Source: an uncultured Polaribacter sp.
Lineage (GTDB): Bacteria; Bacteroidota; Bacteroidia; Flavobacteriales; Flavobacteriaceae
Direction of reading: 5' to 3'
Length of the DNA stretch: 36,464 bases
NCBI GenBank assembly: GCA_937936695.1
Contig: CALHCK010000243.1
Location: forward strand, 1 to 36,464
The position numbers and the translations under genes were made by a program. The notes beneath the pieces were generated by a model. That model saw only the letters and a list, made by a program, of their open reading frames with translations, was not told the DNA's origin and made no database searches. Every line of letters starts with the position of its first letter. Within the stretch, counting starts at the first letter, position 1. Below, piece after piece: positions 6,502 to 35,695 of the stretch.

Positions 6502-6852
6502 CTAGTCTGTTAAAGCAACTTTATTATCAGTACTTAAAGAATTTACATAAACAATTTGGTTGTTTTTGTAATTGATTTCTTTTACTGCATCTTTTGTCCA
6601 AATCATCCATTTACCATCTTTTTTTCCTTCTTTGTAATAAGCTACTTGTTTTTTGTTTCCTTGTTCATCATAAGCTACCCATTTACCAGTTAACTTATTA
6701 TTTTTAAAGAATCCTTGTGTTTTAATGTTACCATTTTCATAGTAATACGTTGCCTTTACTAAATCACCTGATTTTTTAAATGTTGGTTGTATATTTTGAG
6801 AAAACCCTAAAGATGTTACAAATAGAACTAATAATGTTAATAAATTTTTCAT
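6502..6852 (-). CDS. Secreted MORN-variant repeat protein (YwqK-like fold)
   Basis: Signal peptide (MKNLLTLLVLFVTSLGFS) and repeats YYENGNIKTQG, GKWVAYDEQG, YKEGKKDGKW. Confidence 0.8.
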   Translation of the reverse strand: MKNLLTLLVLFVTSLGFSQNIQPTFKKSGDLVKATYYYENGNIKTQGFFKNNKLTGKWVAYDEQGNKKQVAYYKEGKKDGKWMIWTKDAVKEINYKNNQIVYVNSLSTDNKVALTD

Positions 6853-8900: not shown

Positions 8901-10223
8901 TTAAAAAGTTAACTCACCAGAATAGAATTGTAAAACTTTAGTTTTAAAAACATAATCATATTTAGAGCGTATTAAAGAAGACTCTGCATTTACAAAACGT
9001 ATTCTCACTAAATCTAAATCAAACAATGTTATAACCCCATTGTTATATCTTTCTTGTGCATTTTTAAAAGCTTCTTTTTGAGCAGATAATGATATTTTTG
9101 AAGCTTCATAATTTTTTAAGGCTGCTTTAGCATCTAAAAAAGCTTGTTCTATAGTTTGTTTTAATTGTAATTTTTCGTTTTCTAATCTTGTTTTTGATAG
9201 CTCTTGATTTATTAAAGATTTTGCAACATTATTTTTGGTTTGAAAACGATTAAATATCGGAATATTAATACTAAAACCTGCTCCGTAACCAAAATTATCA
9301 TTCAGCTGTTCATAAAGATTGGTATTAGAAAAACCTTCTGGTAAATTTAAATTATACCTATAATTACTAGATAAACTTGCAGATGCTGTAATAGTTGGTA
9401 AAAAAGATGATTTAGAAATTTGTGTAGCTAATTTGGCATTTTCTAATGATAATTTAGCTCTTTCTATTTCAGGCAAACGCTCTAAAGATTTGTTATATAT
9501 TACTGAAGAATTTTTATATAATAAATTAGTTAATTGATTATCTACATTCACAGAGAGGATATCAAAATCGTTGGCTGGAATTTGTAGTGCCTGTGCTAAA
9601 TTTAACAACGCTAAATTTAAAGCATTTTCTTGTGCTACAACTCGTTGTAAATCTGCCGCTGCGGTAGATTGTGCATTAAGCAAATCTCCTTTAGGTATAA
9701 TACCAGATTCAAATCTACGCTCTGTTACCTTTATTTGATTACTGCTTATTTTATACTGTACATTAGCTATATTTAAGTTTTCTTTTGCAAAAAGAATATT
9801 TAAATATGCATTAACAATAAATAATGAAATATCGTTTTTTATCTTTTTTAAATCTAAAAGACTAGATTTTACACCTAATTGTGCTTGTTTATAAATGTAT
9901 GTATTTCTGTAACCGTTAAAAACAGTAATAGCAGAATTTGCCCTTATTCCACCTCCAAATAAACTTGTATTTACTCTGTCTTGAGAAACAGGATCAAAAC
10001 CAGTTCCAAAATTTAAATTTCCTCCTGTAGACGCGGTTAAATTTGGTAAGAAATTACCTTTTGCTATTGCTACATCTTTTTTTGCTAAATTTACGTTTAG
10101 TTGATTCTGTTGTACAGATATGTTTTTTTCTAAAGCTCTGTCTACACATTCTTTAAGAGACCACTTTTTTTGAGAAAAGGAAATAGCTGGTATTAGTAAA
10201 AGTAATAGTAACTTATTTTTCAC
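8901..10223 (-). CDS. TolC-family outer-membrane efflux protein
   Basis: GTG start, signal peptide, WSLKECVDRALEKN, two FLP(N/T) repeats, IPIFNRF, ERYNNG. Confidence 0.9.
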   Translation of the reverse strand: MKNKLLLLLLIPAISFSQKKWSLKECVDRALEKNISVQQNQLNVNLAKKDVAIAKGNFLPNLTASTGGNLNFGTGFDPVSQDRVNTSLFGGGIRANSAITVFNGYRNTYIYKQAQLGVKSSLLDLKKIKNDISLFIVNAYLNILFAKENLNIANVQYKISSNQIKVTERRFESGIIPKGDLLNAQSTAAADLQRVVAQENALNLALLNLAQALQIPANDFDILSVNVDNQLTNLLYKNSSVIYNKSLERLPEIERAKLSLENAKLATQISKSSFLPTITASASLSSNYRYNLNLPEGFSNTNLYEQLNDNFGYGAGFSINIPIFNRFQTKNNVAKSLINQELSKTRLENEKLQLKQTIEQAFLDAKAALKNYEASKISLSAQKEAFKNAQERYNNGVITLFDLDLVRIRFVNAESSLIRSKYDYVFKTKVLQFYSGELTF

Positions 10224-14445: not shown

Positions 14446-15348
14446 CTAATGTAAAAATTTATCTACCACATATACAATAGGCACTACAGTTATATACAAA
14501 ATACTAGACAGCATTAGTTTTCTGGCATCTGTATTTTCTAAGCTTTTATGTAATTTAACCCCAAAATACAGCATGTAAGCACCTAATAAAGTTATAATAA
14601 CAGCCGTTATTGGATAAATGTAAAATGCCCCTGAAAGTTTTAATACTGGTGCAATAGACACTAAAATCATAATTATTGTATAAAAAATAATTTGTTTAAC
14701 AGCCCCTGTATCTTTTGTATTCATAGGTAACATATTAAATCCTGCTTTTTTATACTCTTCGTACTGCAACCAACCAATTGCCCAAAAGTGCGGAAATTGC
14801 CAAAAGAATTGTACCATAAACAAAAACCCTGCCTCTATACCAAAATTATTTGTTGCAGCTACCCAACCTAACATAAAAGGGATAGCACCTGGTATTGCTC
14901 CTACAAAAACAGCTAAAGGTGTTACTGGTTTTAAAGGAGTATACACACTAGTATATAAAAAGATAGAAATAGCACCAAATAATGCCGTTTTAGGGTTAAT
15001 ACTATATAAAATAGCAATTCCTAAAATTGTAAAAAGAATAGCAATTACCAAAGCAACATTTACAGACATTCTACCTGTAGGAATCGGCCTATTCTGAGTA
15101 CGTTTCATAATAGAATCTGTTTCTTTTTCTATTATTTGATTAAATGCATTTGATGCACCTACCATAAAAAAGCCTCCTAAACCTAATAAAAAAAGCACAA
15201 AATAATCTACATCTTCTATTGCTAATAAATAACCAGCAATAGAGGTAAAAACTACACTTAAAGACAAACCAACTTTGGTAAGCTGTTTAAAATCTGAAAT
15301 AATAATTTTCATTGATGTTTTATTGTCTGAAATTACTGTTGATTCCAT
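14446..15348 (-). CDS. cyoE: Heme o synthase (protoheme IX farnesyltransferase, CyoE/CtaB)
   Basis: NQIIEKETDSIMKRTQNRPIPTG, YTPLK, GAIPGAIP, WQFPHFWA. Confidence 0.97.
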   Translation of the reverse strand: MESTVISDNKTSMKIIISDFKQLTKVGLSLSVVFTSIAGYLLAIEDVDYFVLFLLGLGGFFMVGASNAFNQIIEKETDSIMKRTQNRPIPTGRMSVNVALVIAILFTILGIAILYSINPKTALFGAISIFLYTSVYTPLKPVTPLAVFVGAIPGAIPFMLGWVAATNNFGIEAGFLFMVQFFWQFPHFWAIGWLQYEEYKKAGFNMLPMNTKDTGAVKQIIFYTIIMILVSIAPVLKLSGAFYIYPITAVIITLLGAYMLYFGVKLHKSLENTDARKLMLSSILYITVVPIVYVVDKFLH

Positions 15349-15422: not shown

Positions 15423-15450
15423 AAAAAACCCACTCAATAAATTGAGTGGG
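15423..15450 (-). terminator. Intrinsic terminator (ends the candidate sRNA and probably the remB-like operon)
   Basis: 10-bp arms CCCACTCAAT/ATTGAGTGGG followed by U6 on the minus strand. Confidence 0.85.
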
Positions 15451-15498
15451 AAAATTGCTATGAAAAAGAAAAAGTGTGACTTAATTAAAAATCACACT
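15423..15498 (-). ncRNA. Candidate small RNA (hairpin, single-stranded anti-start seed, terminator)
   Basis: TATATTTG at 15507-15500, then AGTGTGA-N12-TCACACT, TTTTCTTTTTCATAGCAATTTT, and CCCACTCAAT-TT-ATTGAGTGGG-TTTTTT. Confidence 0.6.
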
Positions 15499-15548
15499 GC
15501 AAATATACGAATAAATGTATTTAATATTAACATCAAATACAAAAAAAA

Positions 15549-17627
15549 TTAAAAATCTAGGTACCAATTAAACAAATCTGCCTTAATACCTATAGAAAAC
15601 CATGTAGTTGTTCCTTCAGGAAAACCATTTGCATTTATTGTAGGTGCAAAATCTCTATATGTAAAACTTGCAAATAAGCTTGTATTATTGGCTGCATTTA
15701 CTAAATAACGCGCCTGCAAATCTGCTATTAAAATATTTGCTGTATTACCTTGTGCTAATTCATTTCCTGTATCTCCTATTCTTCTATCATTAGATTGAAA
15801 AATGTCTCCACCAAAACTAGTAGTTGGTTGATCAATAAAATCAAAACCTTTTTTACCATAAATTAATTTAGCAAAAGCACTCCATCTTCCTTTTTTATAA
15901 TTTGCTATACCAACAGTTTCCCAAAAATTTGCTCCCCATAAGTGTGCTAATGGTTGACTATAATGTCCGAAATTTAAAAGTGGTGTTTTATGAGAAAAAG
16001 TATAAGGTCTTGCATAGTTATACTCTAATTGTAAAAATAAATTCTCAACATTAAAAGCATTAAAATATTTTGCTCCTAGTTGTAAACCAAATTTATTTCT
16101 CCAATCACTTAAATCCCCTAAATTACCAATAGAAAACTCATCTATAGCCAATTGAGAATATAATGCAACGTTATCTGTTAACTTATATTTACCTGTTAAA
16201 CCTAAAATTGCATTTCCAACATCTGCACCTCTGTTAAACTCTACAGATCTAAAAACTAATAATGGATTTAAGAAAGAAATATCAATTCCGTTTTCACCAG
16301 CAGATACTGCAGCTTCAAAGAAACCAAGATTCAATCTTTTGTTAAGGTTTATACTTAAATGATGTAAGGCTATATATTTTCTTAAATGCGCTCTGTTATT
16401 AGTATTTGCCAAATTTTCTCTTACATCTTGCCCCCACATCCAAATATTAGAATACCTAAACTTCCATAAATCTACATTCATTTTTAAGTAGGTTGTAGGT
16501 GATGACACATCTGAAAGCACAAAAGATCTGTACCCGTCTCCAATAAAGTTTTTACCATGACCAAATTGAAATAAAAAGAATTTATTTGGTTTGTATGAAA
16601 GATACCCTTCTGCTACTGGATAATCAAAAGAATCTTCTTTAAAACCTTTTGCTTTACCTCTACCAGGAACCAAGCCTTCTGAACTTATAGGTTTAAAATT
16701 TTCTTTATCTGGGTTAGATATAAAACTATTTACATAATCTGCAAACCTTCCCTGACTCTCGTAATATGTTGCAGAAAAAGCTATTTTTTTACCTAAAGAT
16801 CCGTTTGCTGTTAAAATTCTAGAATTATTATAGGTATAATCTACATCAGAATTATCTTTTCCTAACTGAGTATCTAACAGAAAATCTAAAGTTAACCAAT
16901 AATCTTCTTTTTTCACTTCTAACAAATGCTCATTCCAAACTTTTTTACCAACCCACGTTTCTTTATTAGGCTTTAAAAACTGCTTTTTAGCTGCTGTTAA
17001 ATTATAATATTCATTTACCTCTTTAAAAGTATATGGTTTAGATGCTGTATGCGTATCATCTGCTTTATGTAAAGCATACTCATAATCAATATATCTTTGG
17101 TGTGTAAACGGAATATTAAGGTAGCTGTTGTGTTCTACAAACAACGAATCTTCTGCTCTAGTTTTGTTTACTACCTCTTGTAAACTTGCTTTTTTCTTAG
17201 GTACAAATGTTTTTACAGCTGTTAACTTTGTTTTCTTTTTTCCGACAGGAAATTTAATAGGAAGCACAAATTTCATTTCTACAGGATGATTGTTATACCA
17301 ACCTGGTTTTATATTTGGAAATGTTTTAAATACTCTAGAAACTTCTTCTTTTAATTGATCGTATGGTGTATTTACATAAATCAGTTTAAAATCTCCTGTA
17401 TTAGTTACTACAAATAAAATATTTGCTGTTCCTTTAAAATTTTCTTGTTCTACAACTGTAGGTGTTTTAAATTCTTTAAAGAAATGTTTTTTAGATTCTT
17501 CTAAAAAACAATCTTCTAAGTTGTTAATTTCTGCTCCTTTACAGGCATCAAAAACAGGATATTTTTCTGATTGAGCAAATAGTAGTGAGGGGAATAATAA
17601 AACTAGTAATATGTATTTTTTTATCAT
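15549..17627 (-). CDS. remB: RemB-like outer-membrane protein with an N-terminal TonB C-terminal-like domain
   Basis: Signal peptide; YPVFDAC...CF...PVEMKFVLPIKF (TonB_C-like); barrel-like region with GHGKNFIGDGYRSFVLSD, EYNYARPYTFSH, PLAHLWGANF; terminal Phe; upstream of cyoE. Confidence 0.75.
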   Translation of the reverse strand: MIKKYILLVLLFPSLLFAQSEKYPVFDACKGAEINNLEDCFLEESKKHFFKEFKTPTVVEQENFKGTANILFVVTNTGDFKLIYVNTPYDQLKEEVSRVFKTFPNIKPGWYNNHPVEMKFVLPIKFPVGKKKTKLTAVKTFVPKKKASLQEVVNKTRAEDSLFVEHNSYLNIPFTHQRYIDYEYALHKADDTHTASKPYTFKEVNEYYNLTAAKKQFLKPNKETWVGKKVWNEHLLEVKKEDYWLTLDFLLDTQLGKDNSDVDYTYNNSRILTANGSLGKKIAFSATYYESQGRFADYVNSFISNPDKENFKPISSEGLVPGRGKAKGFKEDSFDYPVAEGYLSYKPNKFFLFQFGHGKNFIGDGYRSFVLSDVSSPTTYLKMNVDLWKFRYSNIWMWGQDVRENLANTNNRAHLRKYIALHHLSINLNKRLNLGFFEAAVSAGENGIDISFLNPLLVFRSVEFNRGADVGNAILGLTGKYKLTDNVALYSQLAIDEFSIGNLGDLSDWRNKFGLQLGAKYFNAFNVENLFLQLEYNYARPYTFSHKTPLLNFGHYSQPLAHLWGANFWETVGIANYKKGRWSAFAKLIYGKKGFDFIDQPTTSFGGDIFQSNDRRIGDTGNELAQGNTANILIADLQARYLVNAANNTSLFASFTYRDFAPTINANGFPEGTTTWFSIGIKADLFNWYLDF

Positions 17628-33896: not shown

Positions 33897-35189
33897 ATGA
33901 AAAATTTTATTGAAGAATTAAAATGGAGGGGAATGCTACACGACAGCATGCCTACAACAGAAGAACACTTATTAGAAAGTATGAGAAGTGCTTATGTTGG
34001 CTTTGATCCTACTTCAGATTCTTTACATATTGGTAATTTAGTGCCTATTATGCTATTGGCTCATTTTCAAAGATGCGGACATCAACCTATTGCTTTAGTA
34101 GGTGGTGCTACAGGTATGATTGGAGATCCTTCAGGAAAATCGTCTGAACGTAATTTATTAGACGAAAAAACACTACGCCACAATCAAGAAGCTATAAAAG
34201 CACAATTAAGTCATTTTTTAGACTTTACTTCTAACGCAGACAATGCTGCTGTTTTAGTAAATAATTACGATTGGATGAAAGATTTTTCTTTCTTAGAATT
34301 TATTAGAGATATAGGTAAACACATTTCTGTAAATTACATGATGGCTAAAGATTCTGTAAAAAACAGAATTGGATCTGAGTCTAAAGAAGGAATGTCTTTT
34401 ACAGAGTTTACATATCAATTAGTACAAGGTTATGATTTTTTACACCTATACCAAAACAATAATGCATCTATACAAATGGGTGGTTCTGATCAGTGGGGAA
34501 ACATTACCACAGGTACAGAATTAATTAGAAGAATTGGTGGTGGTAAAGGGTATGCAATTACTTGCCCGTTAATTACAAAATCTGATGGTTCTAAATTTGG
34601 AAAATCTGAAGGAGGAAATGTATGGTTAGATGCTAAAAGAACTTCTCCTTATAAATTTTACCAATATTGGCTAAATGCTTCTGATGAAGATGCTGAAAAA
34701 TATATAAAAATATTTACTTTTTTAGAAAAAGCTACTGTTGACGCTTTAATTACAGAGCACAAAGAAGCACCGCATATGCGTTTGTTACAGAAAAGAATAG
34801 GAGAAGAAGTTACTTTGTTAGTACATGGTAAAGATGCTTATGAAAATGCAATTAAAGCATCTAATATTTTATTTGGAAAATCTACAGCATCTGATTTAAA
34901 ATCTTTAGACGAACAAACTTTTTTAGATGTATTTGATGGTGTGCCACAAGCAACTGTTACTACTACTGATATTGAAGAAGGATTAGATATGATTGGAGCT
35001 TTAGCAGCAAAAACTAATTTCTTAAAATCTAATGGTGATGCAAGAAGGGCTTTAAAAGAAAATGCCATTTCTGTTAATAAAGAAAAAGTAAAAGATGATT
35101 TTACAATTTCTAAAGAAGACTTAATTGCAGATAAATATGTACTACTACAACGTGGTAAAAAAACATACTACTTGTTAAAAGTTGAATAA
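33897..35189 (+). CDS. tyrS: Tyrosine-tRNA ligase
   Basis: [29 protein letters not shown]4-like C-terminus. ATG 33897; TATATTTG at 33867-33874. Confidence 0.99.
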
Positions 35190-35251: not shown

Positions 35252-35689
35252 TTACTTTTTATTGGAAGCATTCCAATTTTCATCAGCTTTCTTTTTTAAA
35301 TCTTCTGCACCTTCACTTTTCCAAGATTTTAATGTATTTGTTCCCCAAGCATTGTAAAACAAATAAAGTTTATTGTCTCTAACTTCAAATGTTTTTGGGT
35401 TAATACCTACCTTTTTACCGCTTTTTCCAATGGCATACGCACAGTACCCTCCGTATTGAGGTAAATACTTTTCAGGATCTTTTTTAAACGTTTCTAAGTT
35501 TTTAGCCGATGTAAATTTTAATTTTAACCCTTCGTGTTCTAAAACAAACTTTTTACTACCTTCTTCTGCTTTATTATCAAAATAAGCAACAACATCATAA
35601 CCTTCTGCTACAAAACCTTTTTTTAAATTGTGTACCTGGGCATAGCCAGAAAACGCAACAATAAATATTATTAATACTATCTTTTTCAT
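35252..35689 (-). CDS. Secreted YHS-domain (seleno)protein family member, Cys form
   Basis: Signal peptide, GYDVVAYF, PEKYLPQYGGYCAYA, KLYLFYN. Confidence 0.88.
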   Translation of the reverse strand: MKKIVLIIFIVAFSGYAQVHNLKKGFVAEGYDVVAYFDNKAEEGSKKFVLEHEGLKLKFTSAKNLETFKKDPEKYLPQYGGYCAYAIGKSGKKVGINPKTFEVRDNKLYLFYNAWGTNTLKSWKSEGAEDLKKKADENWNASNKK

Positions 35690-35695
35690 AATTTA

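Follow-up and report, generated by a model that had tools for sequence, protein, structure and literature searches.

FopS, a small RNA of Bacteroides thetaiotaomicron, blocks translation by pairing adjacent to the start codons of outer-membrane protein mRNAs (PMC11697453). A second Bacteroides small RNA, GibS, contains the R1 seed that is common to FopS (PMC7366714). Small RNAs can in turn be inactivated by separate complementary RNAs, as described for Qrr1-4 and QrrX in Vibrio cholerae (PMC9732341) and for RoxS and RosA in Bacillus subtilis (PMC8216469). The Rfp small RNA catalogue of Flavobacterium psychrophilum (PMC9723704) is from a member of the bacterial family discussed here, and is the source of the promoter spacing and of the ECF-type promoter class that we use below.

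In this work we describe a locus in a contig of 36,464 nucleotides from an uncultured Polaribacter sp., the whole of which we call the window. From promoter and terminator conservation, the seed and the covarying stems, the locus is predicted to be a stand-alone small RNA gene. We think it probable, judging from patterns of complementarity, that its RNA covers, by pairing, the start codon and the first lysine codons of mRNAs, chiefly those for exported proteins, and so blocks initiation, and that RNAs carrying near-perfect complements serve as decoys. By analogy, this RNA is best read as a FopS-like repressor of translation initiation and not as a member of FopS. The subject bears on the control of translation in bacteria without Shine-Dalgarno sites and without Hfq.

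The locus in the window

The original prediction, made from this DNA alone, had placed a promoter box, a 5' hairpin, an unpaired stretch and a terminator on the minus strand, with cyoE and a promoter box of its own downstream. All of these were found where it had put them (Table 1). Its 'remB-like' label for the upstream gene was not confirmed, as the 692-aa product has no Pfam or NCBIfam match.

Table 1. Features of the window at the predicted small RNA gene, and a candidate target start
Feature	Positions	Strand	Remarks
TAnnTTTG box TATATTTG, Bacteroidota primary-sigma promoter box	15507-15500	minus	from the sequence
Predicted small RNA, about 73 nt	15423-15495	minus	start inferred from box at -12 to -5
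5' hairpin	15498-15473; arms 15498-15492 and 15479-15473	minus	sequence variable, pairing kept
Unpaired, pyrimidine-rich seed stretch	15472-15451	minus	22-mer (23 nt with 15473); from fold and conservation
Intrinsic terminator	15450-15423; stem 15450-15429	minus	9 bp, then U6
Separate promoter box of cyoE, TATCTTTG	15373-15366	minus	
cyoE, heme o synthase	14446-15348	minus	TIGR01473 above cut-off; context only
Upstream gene, 692 aa, signal-peptide-like N terminus	15549-17627	minus	context only
YHS-domain gene start, candidate target	35680-35690	minus	11-nt exact match

The placing of the RNA start, and with it the length, follows from the spacing of TAnnTTTG boxes relative to transcript starts (PMC9723704). 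The fold of the window unit has a z of -6.3, with none of 200 shuffles equally stable, and the seed bases are predicted to be unpaired with a probability of about 0.8-0.9 or more. The seed is complementary to an A-rich leader, an AUG and two lysine codons, and is invariant over 21 nt. Two terminator-like sites were found where 0.1 were expected, one of them the 5' hairpin itself. Because this hairpin and the U-rich seed behind it score as a terminator, a full-length RNA requires read-through. The distal terminator probably also ends the mRNA of the upstream gene. On the same strand, a 28-aa frame with a TTG start (15567-15481) overlaps the 5' end of the RNA unit.

A gene family in Flavobacteriaceae

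The locus had been taken for a single stand-alone unit. The box, seed and stems agree with the second half of that description but the first half fails, as this genome holds three full copies: the one in the window, one after dnaJ on contig C15 and one between carA and enolase on contig C34 (the names dnaJ, carA and enolase come from reading the translations). Every one of 24 same-genus genomes matches the window unit, mostly over the seed and terminator. Five relatives carry 13, 9, 5, 5 and 3 distinct copies, and the copy number in this genus is 3-13 per genome. In one genome five tandem copies lie within 950 bp (L016, G003:C18:1-950), and pairs are also found in another (G006). An exact scan of species genomes returned at least 120 loci from 3 of its 64 parts, or an estimated 2700 or so overall; among the 80 matches listed nearly all are from Flavobacteriaceae, and a few are named just to phylum or order. 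Two assembled metagenome records labelled Alteromonas and Dyadobacter may be mis-binned. Five 16-nt matches turned up in 89 genomes from other families of the order, none with the architecture.

As the scan loci had been selected by their seed, we measured conservation on copies anchored on DnaJ. A DnaJ match was found in 28 of 30 genomes, and the 21-nt seed lies downstream without mismatch in 26 of these 28 genera; the RNA unit is absent downstream of dnaJ in two small genomes. Among 25 dnaJ-anchored copies the mean pairwise identity is 1.00 in the seed, 0.97 in the box, 0.80 in the terminator, 0.65 in the hairpin and 0.61 and 0.53 in the two flanks. The original prediction had looked to an alignment across Flavobacteriaceae for covarying stems and for a seed better conserved than its surroundings, and both were found. 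Of the 15 consensus pairs in 69 rows picked by hand, 12 are compensatory, i.e. changed on both sides, and 93.4% of cells pair, versus 77.6% when shuffled and 37-48% when slid. Both-side changes occur at all seven consensus pairs of the 5' hairpin, which, in 114 of the 117 loci that have sufficient flanking sequence, folds at -3 kcal/mol or better.

These data bear on the idea that no separate RNA exists, and that the unit is a tandem terminator or the 3' untranslated region of whichever gene lies upstream (dnaJ, the 692-aa gene or carA). Both hairpins do score as terminators, the upstream gene is co-directional with the RNA in 74 of 81 family copies, and a similar terminator is still present after dnaJ in non-carrier genomes. 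This would leave unexplained an exact promoter box that precedes the seed by no more than 60 nt in 111 of 117 copies (versus 9 of 640 background windows), an invariant seed between variable stems, five-copy tandem arrays with no long ORF between the copies, a separate terminator after dnaJ and ahead of the box in at least 3 of 26 cases, and complements that track the presence of the RNA (see below). We judge it very improbable.

We give still less credit to a small MKK peptide encoded opposite the RNA, or to the unit being a selfish miniature repeat. On the plus strand of the window an AUG-AAA-AAG frame is indeed open for 30 codons, but conservation of this antisense frame is lacking (the median length is 9.5 aa, and 66 of 118 reach no more than 10 aa), and a promoter box stands on that side in only 5 of 118 copies. 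A selfish repeat would fit with up to 13 copies per genome and with carriage by phages; against it, most genera hold a copy at the fixed place after dnaJ, and paralogues differ by compensatory changes. Compared with either, a small RNA gene acting on start codons is by far the better account of the family.

The place after dnaJ is the ancestral one. A large and probably Flavobacterium-like genus of 121 genomes has kept the RNA in 50 of them, and the dnaJ-downstream copy was absent from all seven of its genomes checked. In the accessible tables for F. psychrophilum no short RNA contains the seed core, the 10-mer occurring only in the 519-nt Rfp50, and no start site is given directly after dnaJ (PMC9723704). 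Judged by its tables, this is consistent with loss of the RNA in that species, and the absence from these tables may be why the RNA is undescribed.

The novelty of the locus was checked in Rfam 15, where at the gathering score nothing in the window or in 20 further loci matched apart from RNase P next to two of the copies, and nothing in eight decoy or phage loci. The 22 weak Rfam matches (up to E 10) were set aside as terminator matches, and none is a Bacteroides small RNA. Plasmids gave terminator-level matches only. A covariance-model search of 101 genomes scored 42 candidates per genome, and absences were taken from exact patterns instead. No description of the RNA was found in the literature searched, whose coverage left out most subscription papers and figures; as text strings, the 13-nt seed was unmatched and the 10-nt RNA spelling gave an unrelated match only.

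In this genome and in Wenyingzhuangia, the gene next after the dnaJ-linked copy is that of the RNase P RNA (L032:1674-1981, L036:678-1023). Pairing between the two RNAs was considered and dropped, being weak (-8.7 kcal/mol). One further copy (L277) has a second seed-like stretch within its terminator loop.

Pairing at start codons

Enrichment of the pairing at the start codons of exported genes had been expected from the seed. We tabulated it with our own gene calls (1799 genes) and a crude hydrophobicity heuristic for signal peptides, and the outcome depends on how pairing is scored. In-register pairing of at least 10 nt agrees with the expectation: it occurs at 44 of 1486 ATG starts versus 39 of 8447 ATGs that are internal and in frame, and among starts predicted to lead signal peptides 31 of 284 have it, versus 7 of 923 cytoplasmic ones (p 2e-14), an enrichment that is not in itself proof of targeting because MKK starts are common. 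No 9-mer is more frequent at predicted signal-peptide starts than the 9-mer seed complement. A ranking by energy does not agree. Unconstrained duplexes are weaker at starts (mean -5.97 kcal/mol) than at internal ATGs (-6.67 kcal/mol), and among the strongest pairs (-10 kcal/mol or better) signal-peptide starts are not enriched (18/284 versus 48/923, p 0.46). A match of 10 nt is typically worth only -7 to -11 kcal/mol. In its 3' half the seed calls for a G at position -3, where starts have A in 56% and G in 10% of cases; A at this position boosts initiation in Flavobacterium johnsoniae (PMC7797042).

Four starts in the window had been put forward as matches. The 11-nt match at the YHS gene stands, at -11.9 kcal/mol, and is tied second-best among the in-register matches at the genome's called starts. 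As a signal the four do not count, because AUGAAAAA opens 163 of 1486 called ATG starts (11%) and four is thus the base rate. The starts at 6852, 32378 and 33897 pair with the seed at only -5.7 to -7.2 kcal/mol, and the gene at 33897 is tyrosyl-tRNA synthetase, a cytoplasmic enzyme.

Two other sites were seen in this genome. The GTG start of an outer-membrane efflux gene in the window (8901-10223, minus strand) pairs over 14 nt with G:U at -13.9 kcal/mol, which is better than the YHS gene. On another contig (G000:C241:1491, minus strand) a complement of -20.2 kcal/mol lies at the AUG of a 27-codon signal-peptide-like frame that then meets a stop, possibly a broken exported-protein gene.

Carrier and non-carrier genomes

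The genus of 121 genomes allows carriers of the RNA to be compared with non-carriers. We examined all 86 exact 14-nt complement sites in these genomes. A script called 52 of them as RNA genes; two of these (L337 and L356) have neither the box nor dnaJ and were, on inspection by eye, put with the other sites, leaving 50 RNA-gene copies and 36 other sites. Of the latter, 31 lie in the 50 carriers (160.7 Mb) and five in the 71 non-carriers (281.9 Mb). A control word, the same but for a base at -3 that does not pair, is present at 2.04 per Mb in carriers and 2.12 per Mb in non-carriers. Fisher's test gives p 1e-9 with genomes taken as independent, which overstates the contrast because kin are not independent.

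By eye, 13 of the 31 carrier sites are start codons of signal-peptide-like proteins, as are two sites in non-carriers. Homology among the 13 proteins is confined to one pair, i.e. they come from twelve unrelated families. Ten other carrier sites were examined, of which eight directly precede a terminator; three carrier sites fall inside coding frames, and the rest belong to no clear class. Exact complements, including those at start codons, co-occur with the predicted RNA across genomes. In the five multicopy relatives only three extra exact sites were found. At two loci (L362 and L367) the seed complement lies between the stop codon and the terminator of a fasciclin-like gene, so named from its sequence, and is a possible 3' UTR sponge.

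The same contrast weighs on the proposal that the U-rich single strand titrates a protein, such as a chaperone, ribosomal protein or nuclease, with the complementary units merely neutralising the RNA. Invariance over 21 nt goes beyond the usual seed, the copies have expanded in the manner of a dose, and FopS binds the RRM protein RbpB (PMC11697453). However, the invariant stretch has an anti-AUG at its exact centre, in the MKK register, the occurrence of exact complements at true start codons goes with that of the RNA, and no RRM_1 (RbpB-like) gene was found in this genome, an incomplete assembly (81% complete). We consider titration improbable, and continue with pairing over start codons as the preferred reading.

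Decoy-like RNAs

Searching metagenomes for tandem complements, we obtained 24 loci, 19 of which read as intergenic multi-site units; they are not independent, because several are near-identical. Eight, near gcvH, vanZ and deoC, share a conserved GCAACCTTT...TCT box, two sites and a terminator. Six lie beside a DUF2797 gene with 2-4 sites, two lie between recA and a rhodanese-family gene behind the same GCAACCTTT...TCT box, and three are further multi-site units. One of the remaining loci is the RNA gene itself and four are unrelated or unclear. Units of the gcvH/vanZ/deoC type and of the recA type have a predicted promoter of their own, complementary sites and a terminator.

Anchoring on RecA, we found the box on the recA-divergent strand in 14 of 30 genomes, and a site of -15 kcal/mol or better on that strand in 12 of 30, versus 1 of 30 on the recA strand. 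The recA-divergent unit also holds a conserved ORF of about 30 aa (nine loci). This ORF (L412, L414-L418, L421, L422, L426) starts with MKF, ends in Cys-x-x-Asp-Gly-Gly, and stands behind the ECF-type box and ahead of a hairpin and terminator, upstream of the rhodanese-family gene. For the most part the box stands before lipoprotein genes, whether or not the genome carries the RNA. In the form GCAACC[A/T]TT-N-[A/G]C[A/G]TCT it occurs 20-50 nt before lipoprotein genes at L433-L456 and L389, and in this genome at G000:C173:9190 (minus strand). The GCAACC[A/T]TT-type box probably marks a Flavobacteriaceae ECF regulon; in layout it is similar to the F. psychrophilum SM6 promoters but not the same.

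In this genome a cluster of three sites (26158-26232 of contig C249, minus strand, L031) follows an RNase H gene and is itself followed by a long hairpin and U8. At -20.6 to -24.4 kcal/mol these are the three best complements in this genome outside the RNA genes. The cluster is a candidate sponge on the strength of this complementarity, its direction being deduced; no promoter or terminator there passed the scan, and the three-site unit as a whole was not found in relatives, where BLAST gave seed matches only.

Decoys are patchy across genomes. Strict tandem sites occur in 2 of 200 family genomes, one of them an unrelated repeat array, and a looser tandem pattern in 4 of 200, with control matches in eight genomes. 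Decoys were found in 1 of 80 genomes of this genus and at none of 14 ECF-like loci (10 carrier genomes). The tandem arrays of one genome (G154) were rejected as decoys, being an unrelated 23-nt repeat; arrays of this dispersed repeat, with GCTATGAAAC, are found at several loci (L179-L200). Elsewhere a metagenome contig has an intergenic array of four to six seed-complement-like repeats (L281, L292).

The near-perfect sites admit a narrower reading, with antitoxin-like or threshold logic, in which the RNA silences or thresholds a few transcripts, above all the recA-divergent ECF-type one with its peptide of about 30 aa, and the 'decoys' are the actual targets. The full-length seed matches decoy-type transcripts and not average starts, ordinary starts pair at weak energies, and in several genera the site's AUG either opens a short ORF abutting a small conserved ORF or is the start of that ORF. 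Nevertheless, neither this genome nor any of three same-genus genomes, which are the richest in RNA copies, was found to have the recA-divergent unit. Of the units with sites, many have 2-4 of them and lack an ORF, exact sites occur in twelve unrelated families of exported proteins in carriers, and phages carry the RNA. We regard so narrow a role as unlikely. A type I toxin-antitoxin pair was rejected, since the antisense ORF is not conserved and the recA-divergent small ORF is not at recA in this and the three same-genus genomes. The broad reading, in which start codons of exported-protein mRNAs are the targets and multi-site transcripts the decoys, remains the one that we prefer.

Phage copies

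An intergenic match to the seed and terminator is found in 19 records of the Polaribacter phages Leef_1, Danklef_1-5 and Freya_1-10, and Tenacibaculum phage Gundel_1 has the box, seed and terminator. Leef, Danklef and Freya encode integrases and Gundel is without one, according to the accessible text of PMC8776804. Strict-pattern scans of viral sequences gave nothing, and these copies came with a shorter pattern and BLAST. In viral contigs a 15-mer gave 121 matches in the 19 of 64 parts scanned; about eight have the architecture by eye, and a script flagged one of the 121 as having both box and terminator. For the decoy unit, nothing convincing was found in the cultured phages. One further copy (L595, G012:C1:2758077) has a phage-type terminator, lies beside short ORFs and is possibly in a prophage.

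Proposed mechanism

Transcription by the primary sigma factor from about 15495 would give a hairpin-capped RNA, and extra gene copies would raise its dose. The seed core would pair with [C/U]UAUGAAAAA, of which a 9-nt part is the commonest 9-mer at signal-peptide starts, giving weak and broad repression, while mRNAs whose match takes in the seed's 3' half as well, a minority, would be repressed strongly. Transcripts with one to four near-perfect sites would titrate the RNA when envelope proteins are needed, several of them made from an ECF-type promoter that otherwise precedes lipoprotein genes. Phages would borrow the gene, and host surface proteins would be turned down.

A bolder version is that the RNA is part of a Flavobacteriaceae-wide rheostat for export, in which a single invariant anti-MKK RNA damps exported proteins as a class by reading the opening codons of their signal peptides, fake-start RNAs under a stress sigma factor release them, and phage copies shut host receptors. 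This is speculative, and we hold it as a tentative idea that is rather more doubtful than true.

Flavobacteriaceae are among the main degraders of algal polysaccharides, which they attack via exported enzymes and transporters. Natural loss of the RNA (71 of 121 genomes), amplification to 13 copies, the candidate sponges and the cultured phages make the question testable in culturable marine strains. New in this work are the comparison of carriers with non-carriers, the start-codon sites whose occurrence goes with that of the RNA, and the copies in phages. The original prediction did not have the multicopy family, the ancestral place after dnaJ, the decoy-like RNAs, the phage copies or the FopS and GibS precedents. 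If our reading is true, the FopS principle extends far beyond gut Bacteroides and gains both a sponge layer and a phage angle.

Comparison with known systems

The closest likeness is with FopS, which shares a length of about 65-75 nt, a canonical TAnnTTTG promoter, a single-stranded seed, an intrinsic terminator and multiple copies, and for which one phage occurrence is known (PMC11697453). A 10-nt core, UUUUUCAUAG, is common to our seed and the printed 35-nt FopS consensus (PMC11697453), and may reflect either homology or convergence on the same start context. The sequences on both flanks of this core differ. Furthermore, FopS has a single-stranded 5' end without the hairpin that covaries here, is reported in the accessible text from Bacteroidaceae only, whereas our RNA is from Flavobacteriaceae, and has RbpB as a protein partner; the same text describes no sponge RNA for FopS (PMC11697453). 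No curated covariance model matched our RNA in Rfam 15, which may hold no FopS model.

GibS, from the same phylum, which does without Shine-Dalgarno sites, likewise has a long AU-rich single-stranded seed that pairs across start codons, but it is about 145 nt long with two seeds, a single copy, a non-canonical promoter and metabolic targets (PMC7366714). With Qrr1-4/QrrX (PMC9732341) our system would share a multicopy small RNA, and with RoxS/RosA (PMC8216469) a conserved one, that is inactivated by a separate complementary RNA. The sequences and phyla are unrelated, and Qrr depends on Hfq (PMC9732341). Unlike QrrX and RosA, the candidate decoys described here mimic start codons, have up to four or more sites, and vary from lineage to lineage.
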